From a virus, in IMG/VR virus record IMGVR_UViG_3300023301_001182, positions 1-64,000 of that record: a DNA stretch of 64,000 nt; one strand, 5' to 3'. The position numbers and the translations under genes were made by a program. Below the pieces are notes generated by a model. The model searched no databases and had not been told where the DNA came from. It saw only the letters and a program-made list of their open reading frames with translations. Positions within the stretch are counted from its first letter, which is position 1; the number at the start of each line of letters is the position of its first letter. Shown piece after piece: positions 9,172 through 63,549 of this stretch.

Positions 9172-12100
9172 ATGAGTACAGAACTTGCAGGAACTATAGT
9201 ATATGGTAATAGTGAATTATCATTTGTTAATGATAATGAAATACAGGAACAATTAGATTCTGATATATTACCAAATACATCTAGTACACAACAAATTATT
9301 GGACATACTACTACTAGAGATGGTATTGTAATATTTTCTACTGATGATCTAGGTATGGATTGTATATGGTATATTACAGATGTATTACGTAATGCTTATG
9401 AGATGAAATTATTATATGTAAGAAATTTAGGTTTCTCTACAGAATTTCCTATACAAGCAATATTTAATTATGAGAATGAAAACATACAAAAGGTTTATTG
9501 GGTAGATGGAAAGCATCAGATTAGATTTATAAATCTTACACATGATAATATTGAAGGTAATGAGCCTCTAATAGAACTACCGTCAACAAGTATAGATTTT
9601 GTAGGGACTATTGATTTCTCACAGCCTTATGTCACTGATAGAGTAGGTGGTGGAATACATACTGCAGGTATGATTCAATATGCATATAACTTATATAGAT
9701 TAAATTCATCTCAAACTAAATTAAGCCCACTATCAGAATTAGTACCTTTAGATAAAGGAGTAAATGGCGGAGGAGGAGAATTAAATGAAGTAGTAGGACT
9801 TACACCTATAGTTAGGATAGATGATATAGATTTATCATATACTCATATTAAAGTATATGCAATTAAATATACATCTTATAATGAATTACCAAGTATTAAT
9901 CTTATAGAAGATAGAGAAATAGATTCAAGTACTATTACATTATATGATGATGGAACTACTATTGCTTCATTAAGTTTAGAAGAATTTTTATTCTTAGGTT
10001 CAAGTCCTACTACACCAAAACATATTGAAACTAAAGATAATAGATTATTTTTATCTAATATACAAACTAAAGAATTTATATTACCTGATGAGTTAGATAT
10101 GAGGGCATATAGCTTTCCTATCAATTCCTCTACTACAAATGTATATAATAATATATCATCTGTATCTGATGATGTAATGACTGGTGATAAATTAGTTGTT
10201 AGTAATACTACATATGCTGTACCTTTATCCCATGATACTATAAACTTAAATTATAATATAAATAAATATACTTCAAACTCAACTCAGTTAGGAGGGGAAG
10301 GTAAATATATTAAATTTAAAATAGTACAAAAAGATATAACTGATTCTGAAGATTATAGGTTTTTAAAGGATAGAGAAATATATAGATTTGGTATTGAATT
10401 TTATAATAGCCTAGGACAAACATCTTTACCTGAATGGGTTATAGATTATAAAGCTCCTAGTGGTAATTTATTAGGTTCTTATAATACAGTTAATATAGAA
10501 TTAAAAGCAGAATTTTATACTTGGTTAAATAGTACTACATTTGAATCTGGAGATGATAAACCTGTTGGATACAGAATTATAAGAGCTGAAAGAACCTCAA
10601 ATGATAGAACTATATTATGCCAAGGAGTATTAGGTAGTATGATGGTTAATTCTGTCAGAGATAGTGAAAGTGCTGATTTATATACTACTCAACAAAAAAG
10701 AGATGATAGTAAATTAAAACCCAAATTACCAAACTTCTTATTAAGGACTTTTCAAGAACTAGTACCATTAAAAGCTAATAGTCATTTACAAGCTATGCAA
10801 TGGGATTCAACTGGTCAAAGAGCTTTTAATCCATTAAATGAAGTACAATATAAGGATAGTGAGAGAAAAGCTGACACATACCAATACAGTGCTATGTACC
10901 AGATGTACTCACCTGAAATATTATTTAGTACAGTAGGTGTAAATTCATCTACTAAATTTAGTATAGTAGGTGGTGCTGTCAATAATAATAATGCTTGGTG
11001 GGGACAAAAGAGAAACTTTACAACTAAAATTACTGATAATGAAGGCAAGGCTACTGGTAAATTAACACCTCATGCATCAGGTGGTCAAAATTTTGATATT
11101 AATGGTAGAGCTACTGATATGATGCATAGAGGTTTAATTGCTGATCCCCATGGTAGTGATGCAGATAAATTTGTGCAATTTAACCAATTTTATAGGGAGT
11201 TTAGTACTTTTATACCTGCTAATTATAGAGAATACTTTATATTTGGTAAACCAGAACTAACTGTTAGGGGGCAAGGTAATACAAACTATAATAATAATCC
11301 AAATTATGTTTATAGTAATAACTTAGAAGGATTTTTAAGTGATGGTTCAGATGGATGGGACCAGCCTGGGGATCTTGCTAGATCAGTAATTAGTTTAAAT
11401 TCTTATGGTAATAAATGTATAACATTTGTAGGAGATAATGGAACTAACAGTAATACTGTAGCACCACATAATAGACCTTTAATGGAGACACTTTATACTG
11501 CATCAGGTATAAACAACACAAATACCATTTTAATATCAGAATTTATTAGGCCTAAAAATGATACATATTTAGGAGGAATTTATAATGGTAATAGTTATGA
11601 GGATAAAAAAAGAACTACTTATATAAGCATTGGTAGCTATAATGATATAGCTACTACATCTGTACAAATAGATAGTCCTGGTGATACATATGTTCAAGAC
11701 TTTAAATTTGTAAGAATAGGTAAAACTGACAAAGAGGTGTACTCTAATGGTACTAATCAACATACTGAAATAGTATCTGTTAAATTAGAAACTACTGTTG
11801 ACTTAAAAAATAGGAATGACATATCAATATCACAATGGGATTCAAGATTTCAACCAACAAATATTGAATATCATCAATATAATAAAGTATATAGCCAACA
11901 GCCAACTTTAATTAAATCTACTGATGTTGCTTTTACCTTCAAAAGGATAAATAATTTTGATACTAGACTTCAATCTACTAAATTAAAAATACCAAATGAA
12001 AGTATTGATAGTTGGACTGATTTATTAGAGAATGAGATTATGGACTTAAATGGTAAATATGGTCCTATCAATGGATTAGCTTCTTTTGCTGATAATATAT

Positions 12101-58227: not shown

Positions 58228-61200
58228 TTACCTTCCTGTTGTAGACTCAATGAAATTATAAACCTCTTTTATGTTAGCATTATCATAAGGTAAAGGTAGT
58301 TCTCTAAAAAAGTTTACAGCTCCATCAAAGAATAGTGGACAAACTGTGCCACCACCACCACTTCTACCACCAAGTATTTCTAAAAACCTTATATTATCTC
58401 TAAAAAAGGTTATATCATATCCTTGGTACTCTCTTATCTCGTGTCTAAACGGACTAAATAGTCCTATTATAACATTAGCATCCCGTTGAGTTAATTTGCA
58501 ATCGCCAAGACCATCTAATGAAGGTTTTAATCGACCTACCTTCATATTCTCGACTGATTCTTGTGCACTTGCTTGTTGTTGAATAACAACTGGAATGTAG
58601 TTATATTTATTCCTGAGTCTTAAAAGATAATCTGAAGACAATTTAACAATAGAAGCATGTAAGCTCATTTTGTGTCCATTTTCTTCTTCTGTAGAAATTA
58701 AACCTACATGGTCAATAAAGACCATAACATACTCTTCTGGATCATTAGGTTCATAATAATCATCAATCTCTGTTAATGTACCTTTGATATTGATAGTTTT
58801 TTTGTACTGTGTCCCATTGGCTTGTGCATAGGAACGGACAAATTTATAAATACCTGTAGGATTTCTAATATCATCAATGAACTCTACTATTTCTTCAATC
58901 TTCTTGAAATATGGTTCATATTTTGCTATTAACTCTAAAATTTTAATATCTAATATTTTATCTGCTTTAGTACTTCTAAGGTCAGTAGGAGGAATTCTTA
59001 CCCCTTCTTTAACATATATAATGTTAGAGAATGCTGATAACATTTTCTCCTCCTTAGACATCTCTAAAGTAAAATAAAATATCTTCAATCTAATGTTTAA
59101 AGATTTATCAATTACTTGTTGAATAGTATTATACAAAAATAGCCAATCAGCTATTTGAGTTTTCAATTTTGTTATTTCTAACGATTACTAAAATATTTCT
59201 TATTTTCAAAAAATTTTTTAAGTTCTATACCAAATTCATCAACTCCTCTACGTGGAGCATATAAACGCCAGTAACTTCCTGTGTAATTAGTAGTAGAATC
59301 TCTAACTCTATATACTTGTTTGTTTATATCATTACAAAACATACCAACTAAATTATCAAGTGACATTACAGTATTAAAAAACTCTTCATATGTGGCTTTA
59401 GGATAATAATTTAAACAGATCCTGTATAAATCTCCCATAGATCTATTGCAATCCTTTCCACATTGTTTTCTGTTACTTTTAAGATGATATGTTTTATTAC
59501 TGTATATATATCTTGATAATAATAATCTTACAAAATTCTTAAAAACTTTAGAATAAATTTTATGTTTTGTAATGCCAGCTTTTGAAAGGTATAATATTCC
59601 TCTTCCTCTTAATTTTATTTCTATTTTATTAAATTTTTGTTTCATATTTTAGAAATTTAGAAAGTTAAGTCATTTCTACTTAACTCTATAATTTAATATC
59701 AATTTTTAATGAATCAAATAGTTTATCAATATAAGCAGCATCATATTTAGTATCCTTTGTACTTCTACCATAGTTAAATGTAACAGAATTTACATGACCT
59801 GGTATAATTTTACTAGCCCATATAGATATAGATGGCTTTTGACATTTCTCATAAAAGCTATAAAATATTACTTTATTAATACCACCACATACTCTTGCTC
59901 TGAATTTAGTTTCATATAAAGCTTGTAATACCATCTTTTCAGTTGCTCCTTTTTGTTTATAATATTTAAACAAATCATCAAAGCTTCTTCTATCATAGAT
60001 CCCTTTGTCTTTTTTAAATAGAGTACTTCTAAAATACCTCTTATGATTTACTTTATTTAATAAATCTTTTTTTAACTCCTTTAAATTCATCTTTAATTAA
60101 TTTTTATTTTTATAGTTCGGACTATCTCATCAACCTATCTATGTATTACACATTTACAGTCATAATCATGATGTCCTTTTAATGCATCATTATAACATTC
60201 TGTACAACATTGTATACCTTCTGTTATAATTGTTGCAATATTATCACAATCTGTACATAGTATAGGTTGCCCATTGTTAGTCTCTACGTCCTTTTGAATT
60301 TTTGATATTGTATTATCTATAGTTGATTGAAATCTATCATCACAACTATATCCAGCTTTATAATAAGCTAAACCTTTCATAATATTTTCAATATTTCTTT
60401 TATTCAACTGTGACACGGGATTGCCTTCTTTTTTTTCAGTTTCTACACCGTTTTGTAAAGCAAGTCTAACTCCTACTGAAACTCCTAGTTTATAATCATC
60501 CCACCATTTAGGACTTCCTAAAAATTTAGTTAATCGTTTTACTTCTTTCTCAAGTGATAGCATAGGATTGCTTTCTGTTTTTTCCATTATAAATCATCTC
60601 TAGTTAAGTTCTTAATATACATCTGTAAATCTCCATTAGGATAACCTACCCTTCTTGCAAAGGTATGTTTGTATTCAAATCCTAATGTTTTTAGATTGGA
60701 TCTTAATAAGTGCTCATTTGGAGATACTATTACAAAGACAGCTGTCTGGCCTCTACCATATGTATAATCTACTTCTTTATTAATAAGCATTTCCATAGTA
60801 AGCCGTTTTAACTTAGCTTTAAATTCATCTAAAGTTGTGTCATCTCCTACATTATTTAATTGACATAATGCACAGCATGCTGTTGTTGTTTTTTCCATTA
60901 TAATGTTTTTTTAAAAAAGGGTTTCCCCGTTAGCTAATTATTTTTAACAAATACTTTTTTAACCAAGACTTAGAAGTAAATTCTCCAAGTTTAATTAATT
61001 GTTCAATTGTTAAAATTCCTTTTTTCTTTCTTTTTAATATTATTTCTTTTGCTATTCCATCTTGTTTAAATCTTGCAACATAGCCATCTCTATTTCTGAT
61101 TTGATATTTAGTAAAATATGTTGCAAAATATTGGAAGCCATAACCATAACCTGTTGGTATTGCTACACAAGATATTAATATAAAATATTTTGCTAAATTT

Positions 61201-62938
61201 TCAACATATAATTTGGATGTTACATTTATTGAAAATGTTACTTTCTGAGCTGCATGTAATACTTTAGCCACTCTTTCTATAGCTTTAGGTGTACACAGTG
61301 ATGCAAAACTTGATACTTGATCTAAGTAACAATGTTTACAATTACCAATTGCGTCTTGGTAAAAAATTGTACTATAATCTGAAAGATACACTTTATATAC
61401 ATCTGTGTCACACATATTTGGAATACAGTCTTCTAGTCTTATATTTATCATTTTTTCTTAATTAACCCCCATTTCTGGGATTCTGAGTTCAATTACATAT
61501 TACTATGCAAAGGGGCAAAATCTACCTACTTTCGTTTATATTCCACATAAGACGTAACTCTTATATGCGTTTATGATAAATAGTATATATGGTAGGTCTA
61601 TCCTCAATAACTTTTAAGATATTGGTTATTTTCCACGAGTACTGTACCTGCTTATACTTCTTAATACTATTTACTTTAACTGCTATATATTTCTATATAG
61701 ACTGGACTATATCTTCATCTACTTGAGATGGCTTCCATTTCCAATACCATTAACTTGTATTGTACGTGCTCTATTGCACTAGTCTCTGAACGTTACTATT
61801 TCTAGTCTTCGCTGCTGATTGTCTTATATAAAAAAGACACTATATTAGTGTCTTAATTATACTTAGAGTTTCCAGCAATTAAAAAGCTAATCATCTAGAT
61901 GTCACCATCTAGCGTAGCAATTAAATTGTTATTAATAAATATTGTTTTTTAAATTTTTGTTGTACTTTTATTGCATAACTTATACTAGGTCTGTGTGTTT
62001 TAAAATATTCAGCACATTCTTTTAAAGAATTAAATTCCATAATTAATTCTCTTGTACTATAATCTAATACTTGGACTTTCTTATATAAATATTCCATATT
62101 TTTAGTATCTTTTTTATAAGGAGATAATATTTCTTTATAATCATATGACCATAAATAATTACCTGCTTTTTTATAAGTACCATTAATATATCTACATATA
62201 GATGATTTAGAAATATCACACTCAGATGAAGCTTCATTAAGGCTATTATATTTACATATATATTCTCCATTTAAAGAGTACTTATATATAACTTTAGTAG
62301 CTAATATTATTTCACCTATTTTAATTTTGTATTTCCTTGTATTAGATTGTTTAAGTCTAGACTCTTTAGGAAGGATATTTCTATCTACTTCTAAAGTAAT
62401 ATTATATAAAGGTTTTAATATATCTATATAAAATTGTTCTCTACTTATTAACTTATTTTCTTCACATTTTTCTAATATATAAAAATTAAAGTCATTCTCT
62501 GTATTATTATTCCAAGAATTTTGTAATAATATATTACAATGCTTTAATTTTTTTAATGTATAAAAATGATTATATAACCTAGTTCTAATGTTTTTAGAAC
62601 TACCTATATATTGTTTACCATTTTTAATATTTATTATGCAGTAAATACCACTGCAGTTATAATCTTTTGTTATTTTCTTCATAATTTATATATTTATACA
62701 AATATACGAAATTAAATTCAATAATCCTAATTTATAACTGCTAATTTTATAACTTTATTTATTATAACTAATTACTATTCGCTGTAATTAAATAATATTT
62801 ACCTTGCTCAATGCCAGGTAATTCATTTTCAAACCGAGGTAACCCCCATGGTATACAATTAATTTGCCCATTAAGTAACCTCTGTCTCTTTTCTATGATA
62901 TTGTCATAGACTCTTGTATATAAACTTGTTTCTTTCAT
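58228..62938 (-). CDS. DnaB-like replicative helicase, spliced from three exons (62938-62774, 61532-61524, 59163-58228; ~369 aa)
   Basis: Spliced product reads IPWGLPRF..GIEQGKYYLITANS|KVG|KTQIAD..YFTLEMS..FIDHVGL..QQQ..DAN..GLF. Exons of 165, 9 and 936 nt keep the frame. Confidence 0.88.
59178..59645 (-). CDS. Intron-borne basic hypothetical protein (paralog of 59686-60090)
   Basis: RSMGDLY..Y.KAT..FCNDINKQVY motif. Confidence 0.6.
   Translation of the reverse strand: MKQKFNKIEIKLRGRGILYLSKAGITKHKIYSKVFKNFVRLLLSRYIYSNKTYHLKSNRKQCGKDCNRSMGDLYRICLNYYPKATYEEFFNTVMSLDNLVGMFCNDINKQVYRVRDSTTNYTGSYWRLYAPRRGVDEFGIELKKFFENKKYFSNR
59686..60090 (-). CDS. Intron-borne basic hypothetical protein
   Basis: RRSFDDLF..Y..GAT..VCGGINKVIF motif. 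Confidence 0.6.
   Translation of the reverse strand: MNLKELKKDLLNKVNHKRYFRSTLFKKDKGIYDRRSFDDLFKYYKQKGATEKMVLQALYETKFRARVCGGINKVIFYSFYEKCQKPSISIWASKIIPGHVNSVTFNYGRSTKDTKYDAAYIDKLFDSLKIDIKL
60135..60587 (-). CDS. Intron-borne ORF overlapping the ribozyme core; C-terminal Cys-rich (CxxC..CxxC) region
   Basis: EGNPV is encoded by the Q element and DVET by the R element; CTDC..CCTEC lies in the P8 loop. Confidence 0.5.
   Translation of the reverse strand: MEKTESNPMLSLEKEVKRLTKFLGSPKWWDDYKLGVSVGVRLALQNGVETEKKEGNPVSQLNKRNIENIMKGLAYYKAGYSCDDRFQSTIDNTISKIQKDVETNNGQPILCTDCDNIATIITEGIQCCTECYNDALKGHHDYDCKCVIHR
60587..60898 (-). CDS. Intron-borne small protein, possibly GNAT-like fold
   Basis: ACCALCQL; AVFVIVSPNE....LKTLGF resembles the GNAT C-terminal motif. 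Confidence 0.5.
   Translation of the reverse strand: MEKTTTACCALCQLNNVGDDTTLDEFKAKLKRLTMEMLINKEVDYTYGRGQTAVFVIVSPNEHLLRSNLKTLGFEYKHTFARRVGYPNGDLQMYIKNLTRDDL
60930..61451 (-). CDS. Intron-borne hypothetical protein
   Basis: 173 aa; GNCKHCYL; the stop TAA abuts the intron P4 element (AGC TAA CGGGGAA). Confidence 0.55.
   Translation of the reverse strand: MINIRLEDCIPNMCDTDVYKVYLSDYSTIFYQDAIGNCKHCYLDQVSSFASLCTPKAIERVAKVLHAAQKVTFSINVTSKLYVENLAKYFILISCVAIPTGYGYGFQYFATYFTKYQIRNRDGYVARFKQDGIAKEIILKRKKKGILTIEQLIKLGEFTSKSWLKKYLLKIIS
61524..61532 (-). other. 9-nt micro-exon (AAA GTA GGT = K-V-G) of the helicase Walker A motif
   Basis: Preceded by the terminal G of intron 1 (61533), ends in U, and supplies exactly the residues missing between ANS and KT. 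Confidence 0.85.
61921..62682 (-). CDS. Intron-encoded GIY-YIG homing endonuclease with NUMOD1-like repeats
   Basis: SGIYCI.N..NGKQYIGSS....R, REQFYID, YN; C-terminal Y.SL.EA / FNSLKECAEYF repeats. Confidence 0.9.
   Translation of the reverse strand: MKKITKDYNCSGIYCIINIKNGKQYIGSSKNIRTRLYNHFYTLKKLKHCNILLQNSWNNNTENDFNFYILEKCEENKLISREQFYIDILKPLYNITLEVDRNILPKESRLKQSNTRKYKIKIGEIILATKVIYKYSLNGEYICKYNSLNEASSECDISKSSICRYINGTYKKAGNYLWSYDYKEILSPYKKDTKNMEYLYKKVQVLDYSTRELIMEFNSLKECAEYFKTHRPSISYAIKVQQKFKKQYLLITI
62699..62730 (-). promoter_or_regulatory. Intron-internal Bacteroidota-type promoter for the GIY-YIG gene
   Basis: - strand TTAG-N20-TATATTTG. Confidence 0.75.
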
Positions 62939-62940
62939 AT

Positions 62941-63549
62941 TTAATTTAATTTTGAAGTCCATTCATCTCTACTAGGTAATCCTATCTCCTCTATATAAGC
63001 AGATAATCTGGATGACTCTTCACGATTGTTCTCTTGTTTAAATATAAAATAATCAGCACGTTGTAAGAATCTATAATCTCCATGTAAGCTGTCAATATAA
63101 ATATCAACTGCTTTTAGGATATCATCGAATGTATATTTAGAGTTTTCTTTCATCCATCTTGTAAGTTTAATTTCACATGACTTTGGACTACCCATAGAAC
63201 CAGCTTTTAACCCTTTCCATTTGTCTCTAAATAATTCAATTCTACCATCAATCTCTTGATTAATAGTTCTTTGTGATCTTTTAGTAGTCTTCTTAGAAGG
63301 CTCTAAAGCATCAGGTATTTCTACTGTTAAAAACTCTAATAGTTCTACAGATTTCTCCCTTAATATATATTTTGTCTTTTCTTCATCTGTTATAATTTTT
63401 ATTAGTTTTTCTCTTTGTAATTTTTGTAAGTCTATATTAGCTATATTAACTTCTTTCTCTTCAAATAAGTTATATAGAAATAAGAGATCTTCTACAGAAA
63501 TATTGAAATCATTTAGTACAGTAAAATTTAGTACTAAGTTTTTTCTCAT
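62941..63549 (-). CDS. Hypothetical protein, possible replication initiator/helicase loader
   Basis: Directly upstream of the helicase; winged-helix-like N-terminus and helical C-terminal domain (F...W..; FLQRADYFIFK). Confidence 0.4.
   Translation of the reverse strand: MRKNLVLNFTVLNDFNISVEDLLFLYNLFEEKEVNIANIDLQKLQREKLIKIITDEEKTKYILREKSVELLEFLTVEIPDALEPSKKTTKRSQRTINQEIDGRIELFRDKWKGLKAGSMGSPKSCEIKLTRWMKENSKYTFDDILKAVDIYIDSLHGDYRFLQRADYFIFKQENNREESSRLSAYIEEIGLPSRDEWTSKLN

Follow-up and report, generated by a model that had tools for sequence, protein, structure and literature searches.

An open reading frame threaded through the catalytic core of a group I intron in a crAss-like phage helicase gene

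Can the strands that build the catalytic core of a group I intron encode a protein at the same time? This question is raised by a 64,000-nt stretch of viral DNA (positions 1 to 64,000 of IMG/VR record IMGVR_UViG_3300023301_001182, hereafter the window), which is a crAss-like phage. Its DnaB-like replicative helicase gene is interrupted in the P-loop (Walker A) by two group I introns lying 9 nt apart, and an open reading frame (ORF) of 150 codons, ORF150, runs through the core of the second one, intron 2. All features described here lie on the minus strand of the window. We consider it likely that ORF150 truly encodes a protein and is overprinted on the catalytic core of a genuine group I intron, one that splits the P-loop of the helicase, and we infer its translation from comparison with related loci. 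It would offer a natural example of a single RNA sequence bound by two codes, that of catalytic pairing and that of protein coding. The intron, the frame and the core blocks named P, Q, R and S are arranged as follows:

59164..61523, minus strand: intron 2, group I, 2360 nt, with five same-strand ORFs (173, 103, 150, 134 and 155 aa)
60587..60135, minus strand: ORF150, 150 codons, in intron 2 and threaded through the ribozyme core
60913..60930, minus strand: P block, with the P4 5' strand ACGGGG (60930..60925), J4/5 AAA and the P5 5' strand CCTTTTTT (60920..60913)
60438..60572, minus strand: degenerate duplicate Q'..R' module in L5, with Q' AGCAATCCTATG (60572..60561) and R' GGTGTAGAAACT (60449..60438)
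60412..60431, minus strand: Q block, with the P5 3' strand AAAGAAGG (60431..60424), the P4 3' strand TCCCGT (60420..60415) and the P6 5' strand GTC (60414..60412)
60291..60411, minus strand: L6 loop, 121 nt, coding, with 0 in-frame stops against 4 and 8 in the other frames
60263..60290, minus strand: R block, with the P6 3' strand GAC (60290..60288), the P7 5' strand GAGACT (60284..60279), the P3 3' strand TGGG (60273..60270) and the P8 5' strand CAACCTA (60269..60263)
60138..60262, minus strand: L8 loop, 125 nt, coding for the Cys-rich C-terminal module of ORF150
60110..60137, minus strand: region of the S block GAGATAGTCC, with the P8 3' strand TAGGTTG (60137..60131), J8/7 ATGAGAT, the P7 3' strand AGTCC (60123..60119) and the P9 5' strand CTATAA (60115..60110)

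An earlier note on this DNA, made from its letters, had described most of this layout, and we found the description to be accurate. The ATG of ORF150 overlaps the TAA of an upstream 103-aa ORF (TAATG), the Q element GGC AAT CCC GTG (60425..60414) is read in frame as G-N-P-V and the R element GAC GTA GAG ACT (60290..60279) as D-V-E-T. The frame stays open across the expanded P6 loop, where the probability of finding no stop is 0.006, and the P8 loop encodes a cysteine cluster (CTDC...CCTEC...CKC). It ends a few nucleotides short of S, as the stop TAG (60137..60135) lies 6 nt before the S block and its three bases begin the P8 3' strand. The Q block is contained wholly in the codons K-E-G-N-P-V-S, with K-E-G forming P5' and N-P-V-S forming P4' and P6, and the R block wholly in the codons D-V-E-T-N-N-G-Q-P-I, which cover P6', P7, P3' and P8. 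ORF150 codons in this way supply P5', P4', both P6 strands, the 5' strand of P7, P3', the 5' strand of P8 and the first 3 nt of P8'. The Q'..R' copy makes up the first 52 codons, the N-terminal third of ORF150; Q' and R' are unable to form P4 or P7, and the same two-unit layout was observed in two metagenome proteins (P0003 and P0004). Read from the sequence, the exon frame stops 7 codons into intron 2. Other phage introns likewise stop the exon frame early.

In relatives the frame was found to stay open while the core pairings covary, both in all seven orthologous introns and across 41 IMG/VR loci. In 7 of 7 orthologous introns the ORF crosses Q and R in one frame and usually ends in P8', with the stop at the UAG of P8' in four (the window, L005, L006 and Cellulophaga phage phi14:2). 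The lengths of all seven L6 loops are multiples of 3, and these loops, mutually unrelated in sequence, contain 0 in-frame stops compared to 25 and 48 in the other two frames; after shuffling, the chance of an open frame was 0.2–2.5% per loop. Searched as exact 15-mers, the R block was found in 83 and the Q block in 74 IMG/VR loci. All 41 loci carrying both have Q and R in one frame, and 40 have no stop in between. The start is positioned regularly as well: in 16 loci the ATG follows an A/U-rich leader and lies 10–14 nt past the P5 5' strand, and where another ORF fills L5 it lies 14–30 nt before Q; in the window it lies further upstream, ahead of the Q'-R' unit. In most loci the stop codon ends 6 nt before the S block. 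Among 1.84 billion representatives, a profile of 28 core ORFs matched 269 clusters (E ≤ 1e-3), almost all of them 55–170 aa long, and one metagenome homologue is 82% identical to ORF150 over its full length; the search of viral contigs for related loci with the ORF150 peptide gave no match. The same intron and ORF also occur in a superfamily 2 (SF2) helicase gene (L076) and in a ribonucleotide reductase gene (L081). For the L6 modules we calculated ratios of nonsynonymous to synonymous substitution rates (dN/dS) of 0.25–0.50 in five of six related pairs. The open frame of ORF150 is, on this comparison, far beyond chance.

The earlier note had stated that its reading would fall if the frame were not conserved, being a chance ORF or a fusion of fragments, and the comparative data gave no such picture. 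A chance frame, or a dead and untranslated fusion of fragments left by recombination between intron copies, could account for the degenerate duplicate of the Q..R unit in the N-terminal third, for a 17-bp repeat marking a recombination joint at the ORF150 start and for the lack of a Pfam or PHROG family for ORF150. It fits poorly with the open L6 in the window and in 40 of 41 relatives, with the full-length metagenome homologue and with the conserved start and stop positions. This explanation is already disfavoured by the comparative data, and we regard it as most improbable.

Next, we consider whether the core itself is real. The remaining parts of the intron are:

61484..61516, minus strand: 5' part of intron 2, with the internal guide sequence (IGS) GCC (61516..61514), the P2 hairpin with a GUAA loop (61510..61493) and the P3 5' strand CTCA (61487..61484)
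59164..60090, minus strand: 3' part of intron 2, with ORF134 in the P9 loop, the P9.1 hairpin (59684..59664), ORF155 in the next loop and the terminal G (59164)

At the boundaries of intron 2 the last base of the 5' exon is a U opposite the IGS G, and the last base of the intron is G (59164). P1 is GGU/GCC, and the GCC guide also pairs with the first bases of the 3' exon, so that P1, P10 and the terminal G are all present; read from the sequences, P10 covaries between loci (AAAUCA/UGAUUU versus AAAAC/GUUUU). The seven orthologous introns share a common 5' end, the core blocks and the 3' end UAACAAA(A)UUG, followed by AAA. When the intron was compared with the phi14:2 intron at the same site (blastn, word size 7), little nucleotide similarity was found besides the P, Q, R and S blocks: 24 nt at 96% identity for P, 18 nt for Q, 16–19 nt for R and 35 nt at 89% for S, together with a 15-nt block at the P9' strand. 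The blocks are collinear in the seven helicase introns and the spacers are variable, P to Q ranging from 46 nt (L010) to 865 nt (L005). Further loci were fetched with DNA patterns of the S and P blocks. Compensatory pairs in P5 and P8 occur over ~30 loci. We observed compensatory changes in P3, P4, P5, P6 and P8, with J8/7 reading AUGAGAY. P3 covaries as CUCA/UGAG versus UUCC/GGAA, P4 as ACGAGG/UCUCGU, ACGGCG/CGCCGU and ACGGUG/UACCGU, P5 as CCUUUU/AAAAGG, CCAUUA/UAAUGG, GCAAUU/AGUUGU and UCCUUA/UAAGGA, and P8 as CAACCUA/UAGGUUG, GUACCUG/CAGGUAU, UAUCCUG/UAGGAUA and GAACCUG/UAGGUUC. The P7 pairing (GACU/AGUC) is invariant across loci, and the P2 and P9.1 hairpins, again read from the sequences, covary. 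As conserved nucleotide blocks that are collinear in seven introns and form covarying pairings, P, Q, R and S are real ribozyme elements and no chance resemblances. Intron 2 is a group I intron, predicted from its sequence to splice. In the window, positions 60930–61483 between P3 and P4 hold a short GNRA hairpin and a second hairpin with an ORF (ORF173), an unusual site for a group I intron insertion; at locus L012, located at another exon site, P3 directly adjoins P4.

Several observations weigh against our reading. P6 in the window has only 3 bp; a likely 6-bp P6a in L6, formed by TTGAAT (60407..60402) and ATTCAA (60299..60294) as read by eye, may rescue it. Rfam gave no group I match for 60060..60620 at E ≤ 10, and the compact core of L010 reached only 12.4 and 10.7 bits (cut-off 50). 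The 12.4-bit match (E 1) puts P to Q on P4-P5-P4', and the long loop insertions probably break the alignment of intron 2 to the Rfam model. Searching a phage collection with the compact L010 core by blastn gave no match. The canonical core of intron 1 was found by Rfam only when a 291-nt piece was searched and was missed both in the whole-window gathering run and in a 4.2-kb E-value run; a negative Rfam result on a long, AT-rich sequence is therefore untrustworthy here. Locus L084 carries a TAA within L6, the sole exception among the 41 loci, and a small number of loci have a core ORF that terminates directly past R, with only the L5-Q-L6-R part being universal. The sixth pair gave a dN/dS of 1.06, and all six pairs are short. 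Furthermore, the other two frames of the R block contain stops, as read from the sequence, so that any ORF crossing R must use the ORF150 frame and the sameness of the frame is partly forced. Of 34 distinct loci, 25 adjoin a helicase that is 30–88% identical to that of the window (most >70%), and many of the loci are therefore orthologous introns and not fully independent. Despite this orthology, most of the loops that separate the blocks show no relationship to one another, and every open one counts as a test of its own. Finally, none of the five intron 2 ORFs matched a Pfam or PHROG family.

Which of the two codes governs which part of the sequence can be read from the family. The peptides encoded by the core strands follow the motifs [GD]NPVPS[LI] and [QE]NGVET..QP. 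The compensatory P4 changes, written as DNA ACGAGG/TCTCGT, ACGGCG/CGCCGT and ACGGTG/TACCGT, change the residue at the Pro codon to Leu, Ala and Thr; because they alter the amino acid, the NPVPS and NGVET motifs are set by the RNA, and where pairing rewrites the residue RNA pairing wins over coding. Encoded in L5, L6 and L8 are interchangeable peptide modules of ~30–60 aa, some of them Cys4 zinc-knuckle-like. Homologous modules (E 2e-11 to 2e-4) occupy different loops from one intron to another and keep 38–55% amino-acid identity after such a move: the L5 module of the window, the Q'..R' peptide, resembles the L8 module of L036 (E 4e-6), the L8 module of L044 resembles the L5 modules of L040 and L108, and the L6 module of L086 resembles the L5 module of L118 (E 2e-11). 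On this evidence RNA and protein constraint both act, at different places, the core strands being RNA-driven and the loop modules behaving as protein.

These modules also bear on another explanation, in which the frame is kept open only for the passage of ribosomes and the peptide is irrelevant. Passage could couple ORF103, ORF150 and ORF134, avoid polarity or RNA decay in the 2.4-kb intron, or keep the core unfolded until transcription is done. The hypervariable loop peptides, with no residue conserved family-wide outside the RNA-dictated motifs, would agree with this, as would the overlap of the ORF150 start with the ORF103 stop, the next ORF beginning 44 nt past the ORF150 stop and the one pair with a dN/dS near 1. 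Passage alone leaves unexplained the dN/dS of 0.25–0.50 in the other five pairs, the identity of modules even when they sit in another loop and the recurrence of Cys4 patterns in L8. Moreover, the core ORF is retained even in compact introns that have no other loop genes, among them L010 with a core of 250 nt. We consider this explanation unlikely.

What the protein does was approached by searching ORF150 and 27 relatives. A homing-endonuclease signature (GIY-YIG, HNH, LAGLIDADG, His-Cys box or PD-(D/E)XK) was found in none of them, and the 27 relatives matched no Pfam or PHROG family beyond weak zinc-ribbon matches in one member and one unnamed PHROG. A single-sequence AlphaFold2 model of ORF150 was poor (mean predicted local distance difference test score, pLDDT, of 54), and a protein atlas search with ORF150 returned only scores <0.8 with template modelling (TM) scores <0.35. 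A hidden HNH nuclease in the Cys/His-rich tail was considered and rejected, as the pattern is not conserved in relatives and had no model match. Our best guess for the product is a small nucleic-acid-binding accessory factor. A more specific alternative is an intron-specific helper, either a maturase-like protein or RNA chaperone acting on its own intron, or a DNA-binding specificity module that aids homing by a nuclease encoded elsewhere. This could explain why the L8 modules of many members are small Cys4, zinc-ribbon-like units, why one member shows the weak Pfam zinc-ribbon matches, and why intron 2 of the window has no recognisable endonuclease among its five ORFs (Pfam, PHROG). The shuffled modules of ~40 aa also recall the modular DNA-binding domains of homing endonucleases. 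As many members (L007, L009 and L010) have no Cys-rich module, no module is universal, no similarity to LAGLIDADG maturases was found and the structure model is too poor to judge, we hold a dedicated helper to be quite improbable.

Two further loci differ in their protein content. In L085 (reverse complement, 10442–11159) a 239-aa ORF that is LAGLIDADG-like by eye follows the R block, and here the core ORF terminates directly past R; a core ORF may thus occur together with a standard endonuclease. In L024 (883–1548) the L5 module is ~120 aa long and by eye resembles an acetyltransferase-type domain, so larger domains may be fused into the core ORF.

If ORF150 is translated, its expression should interfere with the ribozyme. 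In the family, translation of the core ORF would start in the P5 loop or just downstream of an ORF filling that loop. The fixed frame would then run through P5'/P4', both P6 strands, the P7 5' strand, P3' and the P8 5' strand and end at the UAG within P8', with the core strands acting as invariant in-frame linkers and the loops carrying exchangeable modules; in the window an extra degenerate Q'-R' unit would have been added in L5. A ribosome on the ORF150 codons would have to unpair P4, P6, P7, P3 and P8, and the folded P4-P6 domain would bury the codons just after the usual start, so that one RNA molecule would either fold or be translated. The protein would be made from transcripts that are not yet folded, or from the excised intron. 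In the T4 td/I-TevI system, ribosome occupancy of core sequences is reported to lead to a splicing defect when the ribosome site of I-TevI is unmasked (reviewed in PMC3073962). The mutual exclusion of translation and core folding proposed in the earlier note can thus reasonably be inferred, and the regulatory splicing switch that it also proposed is speculation. A homologous intron exists in the cultured Cellulophaga phage phi14:2, which makes the interference of translation and self-splicing in bacteria testable on an ORF that spans nearly the whole core.

Besides ORF150, intron 2 carries ORFs in other loops, two of which lie upstream of it:

60930..61451, minus strand: ORF173, in the loop of the hairpin inserted between P3 and P4 (ORF list)
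60587..60898, minus strand: ORF103, a cassette in the L5 loop (ORF list)

L005 has the ORF173 hairpin without an ORF and L009 has a 168-aa homologue, and 99-aa homologues of ORF103 are found at the same place in L005 and L009. The ORF134 stop TAG lies in P9' (TTATAG, 59691..59686). Overall, ORF families of 173/168, 103/99 and 134/127–130 aa recur at the same loop positions in relatives, and other relatives carry different loop genes, such as a family of 204–248 aa in the P9 loop of phi14:2, L006, L007 and L010. A perfect 17-bp direct repeat (TTATAATGGAAAAAACA) at 60887–60903 and 60576–60592 covers the start codons of ORF103 and ORF150 and seems to be the junction through which the ORF103 cassette was inserted into L5. 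In the metagenome data, which for these population alignments were DNA contigs only, we observed near-identical sequence in a hypersaline-lake metagenome and diverged relatives in lake-water metagenomes. The lake-water population contigs align to the core blocks and skip or replace exactly L8 (joints 60137 to 60263 and 60137 to 60264) or exactly L6 (60287 to 60414), and some relatives are without exactly ORF155 or ORF134 (joints 59174 to 59664 and 59695 to 60103). A target-site duplication flanking ORF155 was considered and rejected, since relatives show a normal P9.1/P9.2 3' end. The joints indicate a cassette-like turnover of intron loops between fixed core joints in natural populations, and the 17-bp repeat over both start codons points to it as well. 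We tentatively suggest, as a possible but doubtful extension, that the core strands are the fixed in-frame joints of a cassette gene, in which recombination at Q, R and P8 would swap modules between loops and introns and diversify small intron-borne proteins, whose synthesis would be gated by ribozyme folding and would itself gate the splicing of an essential replication gene.

Overlap of an intron ORF with core helices is known. In core creep, homing endonuclease ORFs overlap group I core helices, as in T4 td/I-TevI, Bacillus thuringiensis nrdF and the Synechococcus lividus large subunit (LSU) gene (Edgell, Chalamcharla and Belfort 2011, PMC3073962). Overlaps of between 9 and 81 nt have been predicted, and the longest extends over P6/P7/P3/P8/P9.0/P9 (PMC3073962). 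The earlier note had held that crossing Q, R and P8 is more extensive than the overlap with one core element often seen at the end of endonuclease ORFs; the crossing itself stands, but with predicted overlaps of up to 81 nt over those helices already tabulated this claim has to be moderated. ORF150 resembles core creep in that a loop-seated ORF extends into the core, its codons forming core helices, and the same nucleotides are under coding and pairing constraint. In core creep, however, an endonuclease ORF is extended from one loop, whereas ORF150 has no recognisable endonuclease and links L5, L6 and L8 via the core strands; its conserved part spans L5 to L8, with start and stop fixed in at least 30 loci. 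Unlike core creep, the arrangement is a conserved trait of a large intron family, its start and stop being structurally fixed and its loop modules exchangeable. The review cautions that the cases of extensive overlap are possibly mis-annotated ORFs (PMC3073962), whereas the ORF150 frame is backed by comparative evidence. Such support is thus obtainable for extensive ORF-core overlap, which has so far been listed mainly from single, possibly mis-annotated ORFs. The overlap of ORF and core is known, and the conserved, modular, non-endonuclease form differs from the known cases.

A further comparison is offered by mitochondrial group I intron ORFs, which continue the frame of the upstream exon and code for proteins of the LAGLIDADG or GIY-YIG type. 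These share with ORF150 a long frame through structured intron RNA, but they start in the exon, whereas the ORF150-type core ORF starts inside L5, beyond the early stop of the exon frame. Crass-like phages are known to have self-splicing group I introns in core replication genes, which were detected via endonuclease domains (Yutin et al. 2021, PMC7886860). Intron 2 likewise lies in a replication gene, but it is without an endonuclease domain and is not called by Rfam; standard intron finders miss its family. A literature search of limited coverage found no paper describing the ORF150 family.

The interrupted gene and intron 1 comprise the following features:

62774..62962, minus strand: helicase exon 1, ending ACA GCG AAT AGT (T-A-N-S), the first half of the Walker A loop (ORF list and alignment)
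61533..62773, minus strand: intron 1, group I, 1241 nt
62682..61921, minus strand: GIY-YIG/NUMOD endonuclease ORF of intron 1 (Pfam GIY-YIG and NUMOD1)
61917..61683, minus strand: canonical group I core of intron 1 (Rfam RF00028, 80.6 bits, E 3e-21)
61524..61532, minus strand: micro-exon AAAGTAGGT (K-V-G), 9 nt, between introns 1 and 2, inside the Walker A loop
58228..59163, minus strand: helicase exon 3, starting AAA ACT CAA (K-T-Q), with AAAACTCAA at 59163 (tblastn)

The 312-aa ORF at 58228..59166 matches DnaB-like replicative helicases of Crassvirales, with phi14:2 as the top match (52% identity, tblastn). In the alignment, uninterrupted crAss-like helicases read ANSK[VI]GKTQIAD across the Walker A loop, and in the window this stretch is distributed over three pieces, ANS at the end of exon 1 (to 62774), KVG (61532..61524) and KTQIADW (from 59163). 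Joining the flanks of both introns rebuilds ANSK[VI]GKTQIAD. Intron 1, whose GIY-YIG domain was found with E 7.8e-11 in the same scan as the intron 2 ORFs, is inserted 9 nt upstream of intron 2, and relatives carry the second intron only; in these, AATAGTAAAGT[GT]GGT lies directly before the conserved start of intron 2. As a middle exon we had also considered ACTCGTGGAAAA (T-R-G-K), just past the core of intron 1, and rejected it because homology with relatives puts the micro-exon at AAAGTAGGT.

In the RefSeq record of phi14:2 (L001, NC_021806.1, 12982–16707) the helicase pieces g024 and g029 are annotated as separate genes, with g025–g028 as hypothetical proteins, so that the helicase intron goes unnoticed in the public entry; the same record annotates the PolB gene as joined. 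The intron family explains such 'hypothetical genes' between helicase fragments in the genomes of crAss-like phages. In L005 (10420–11546), L060, L066 and L087 helicase exon 3 is split again downstream, giving two tblastn pieces with a gap of ~0.4–1.8 kb, which suggests further introns in the same helicase gene.

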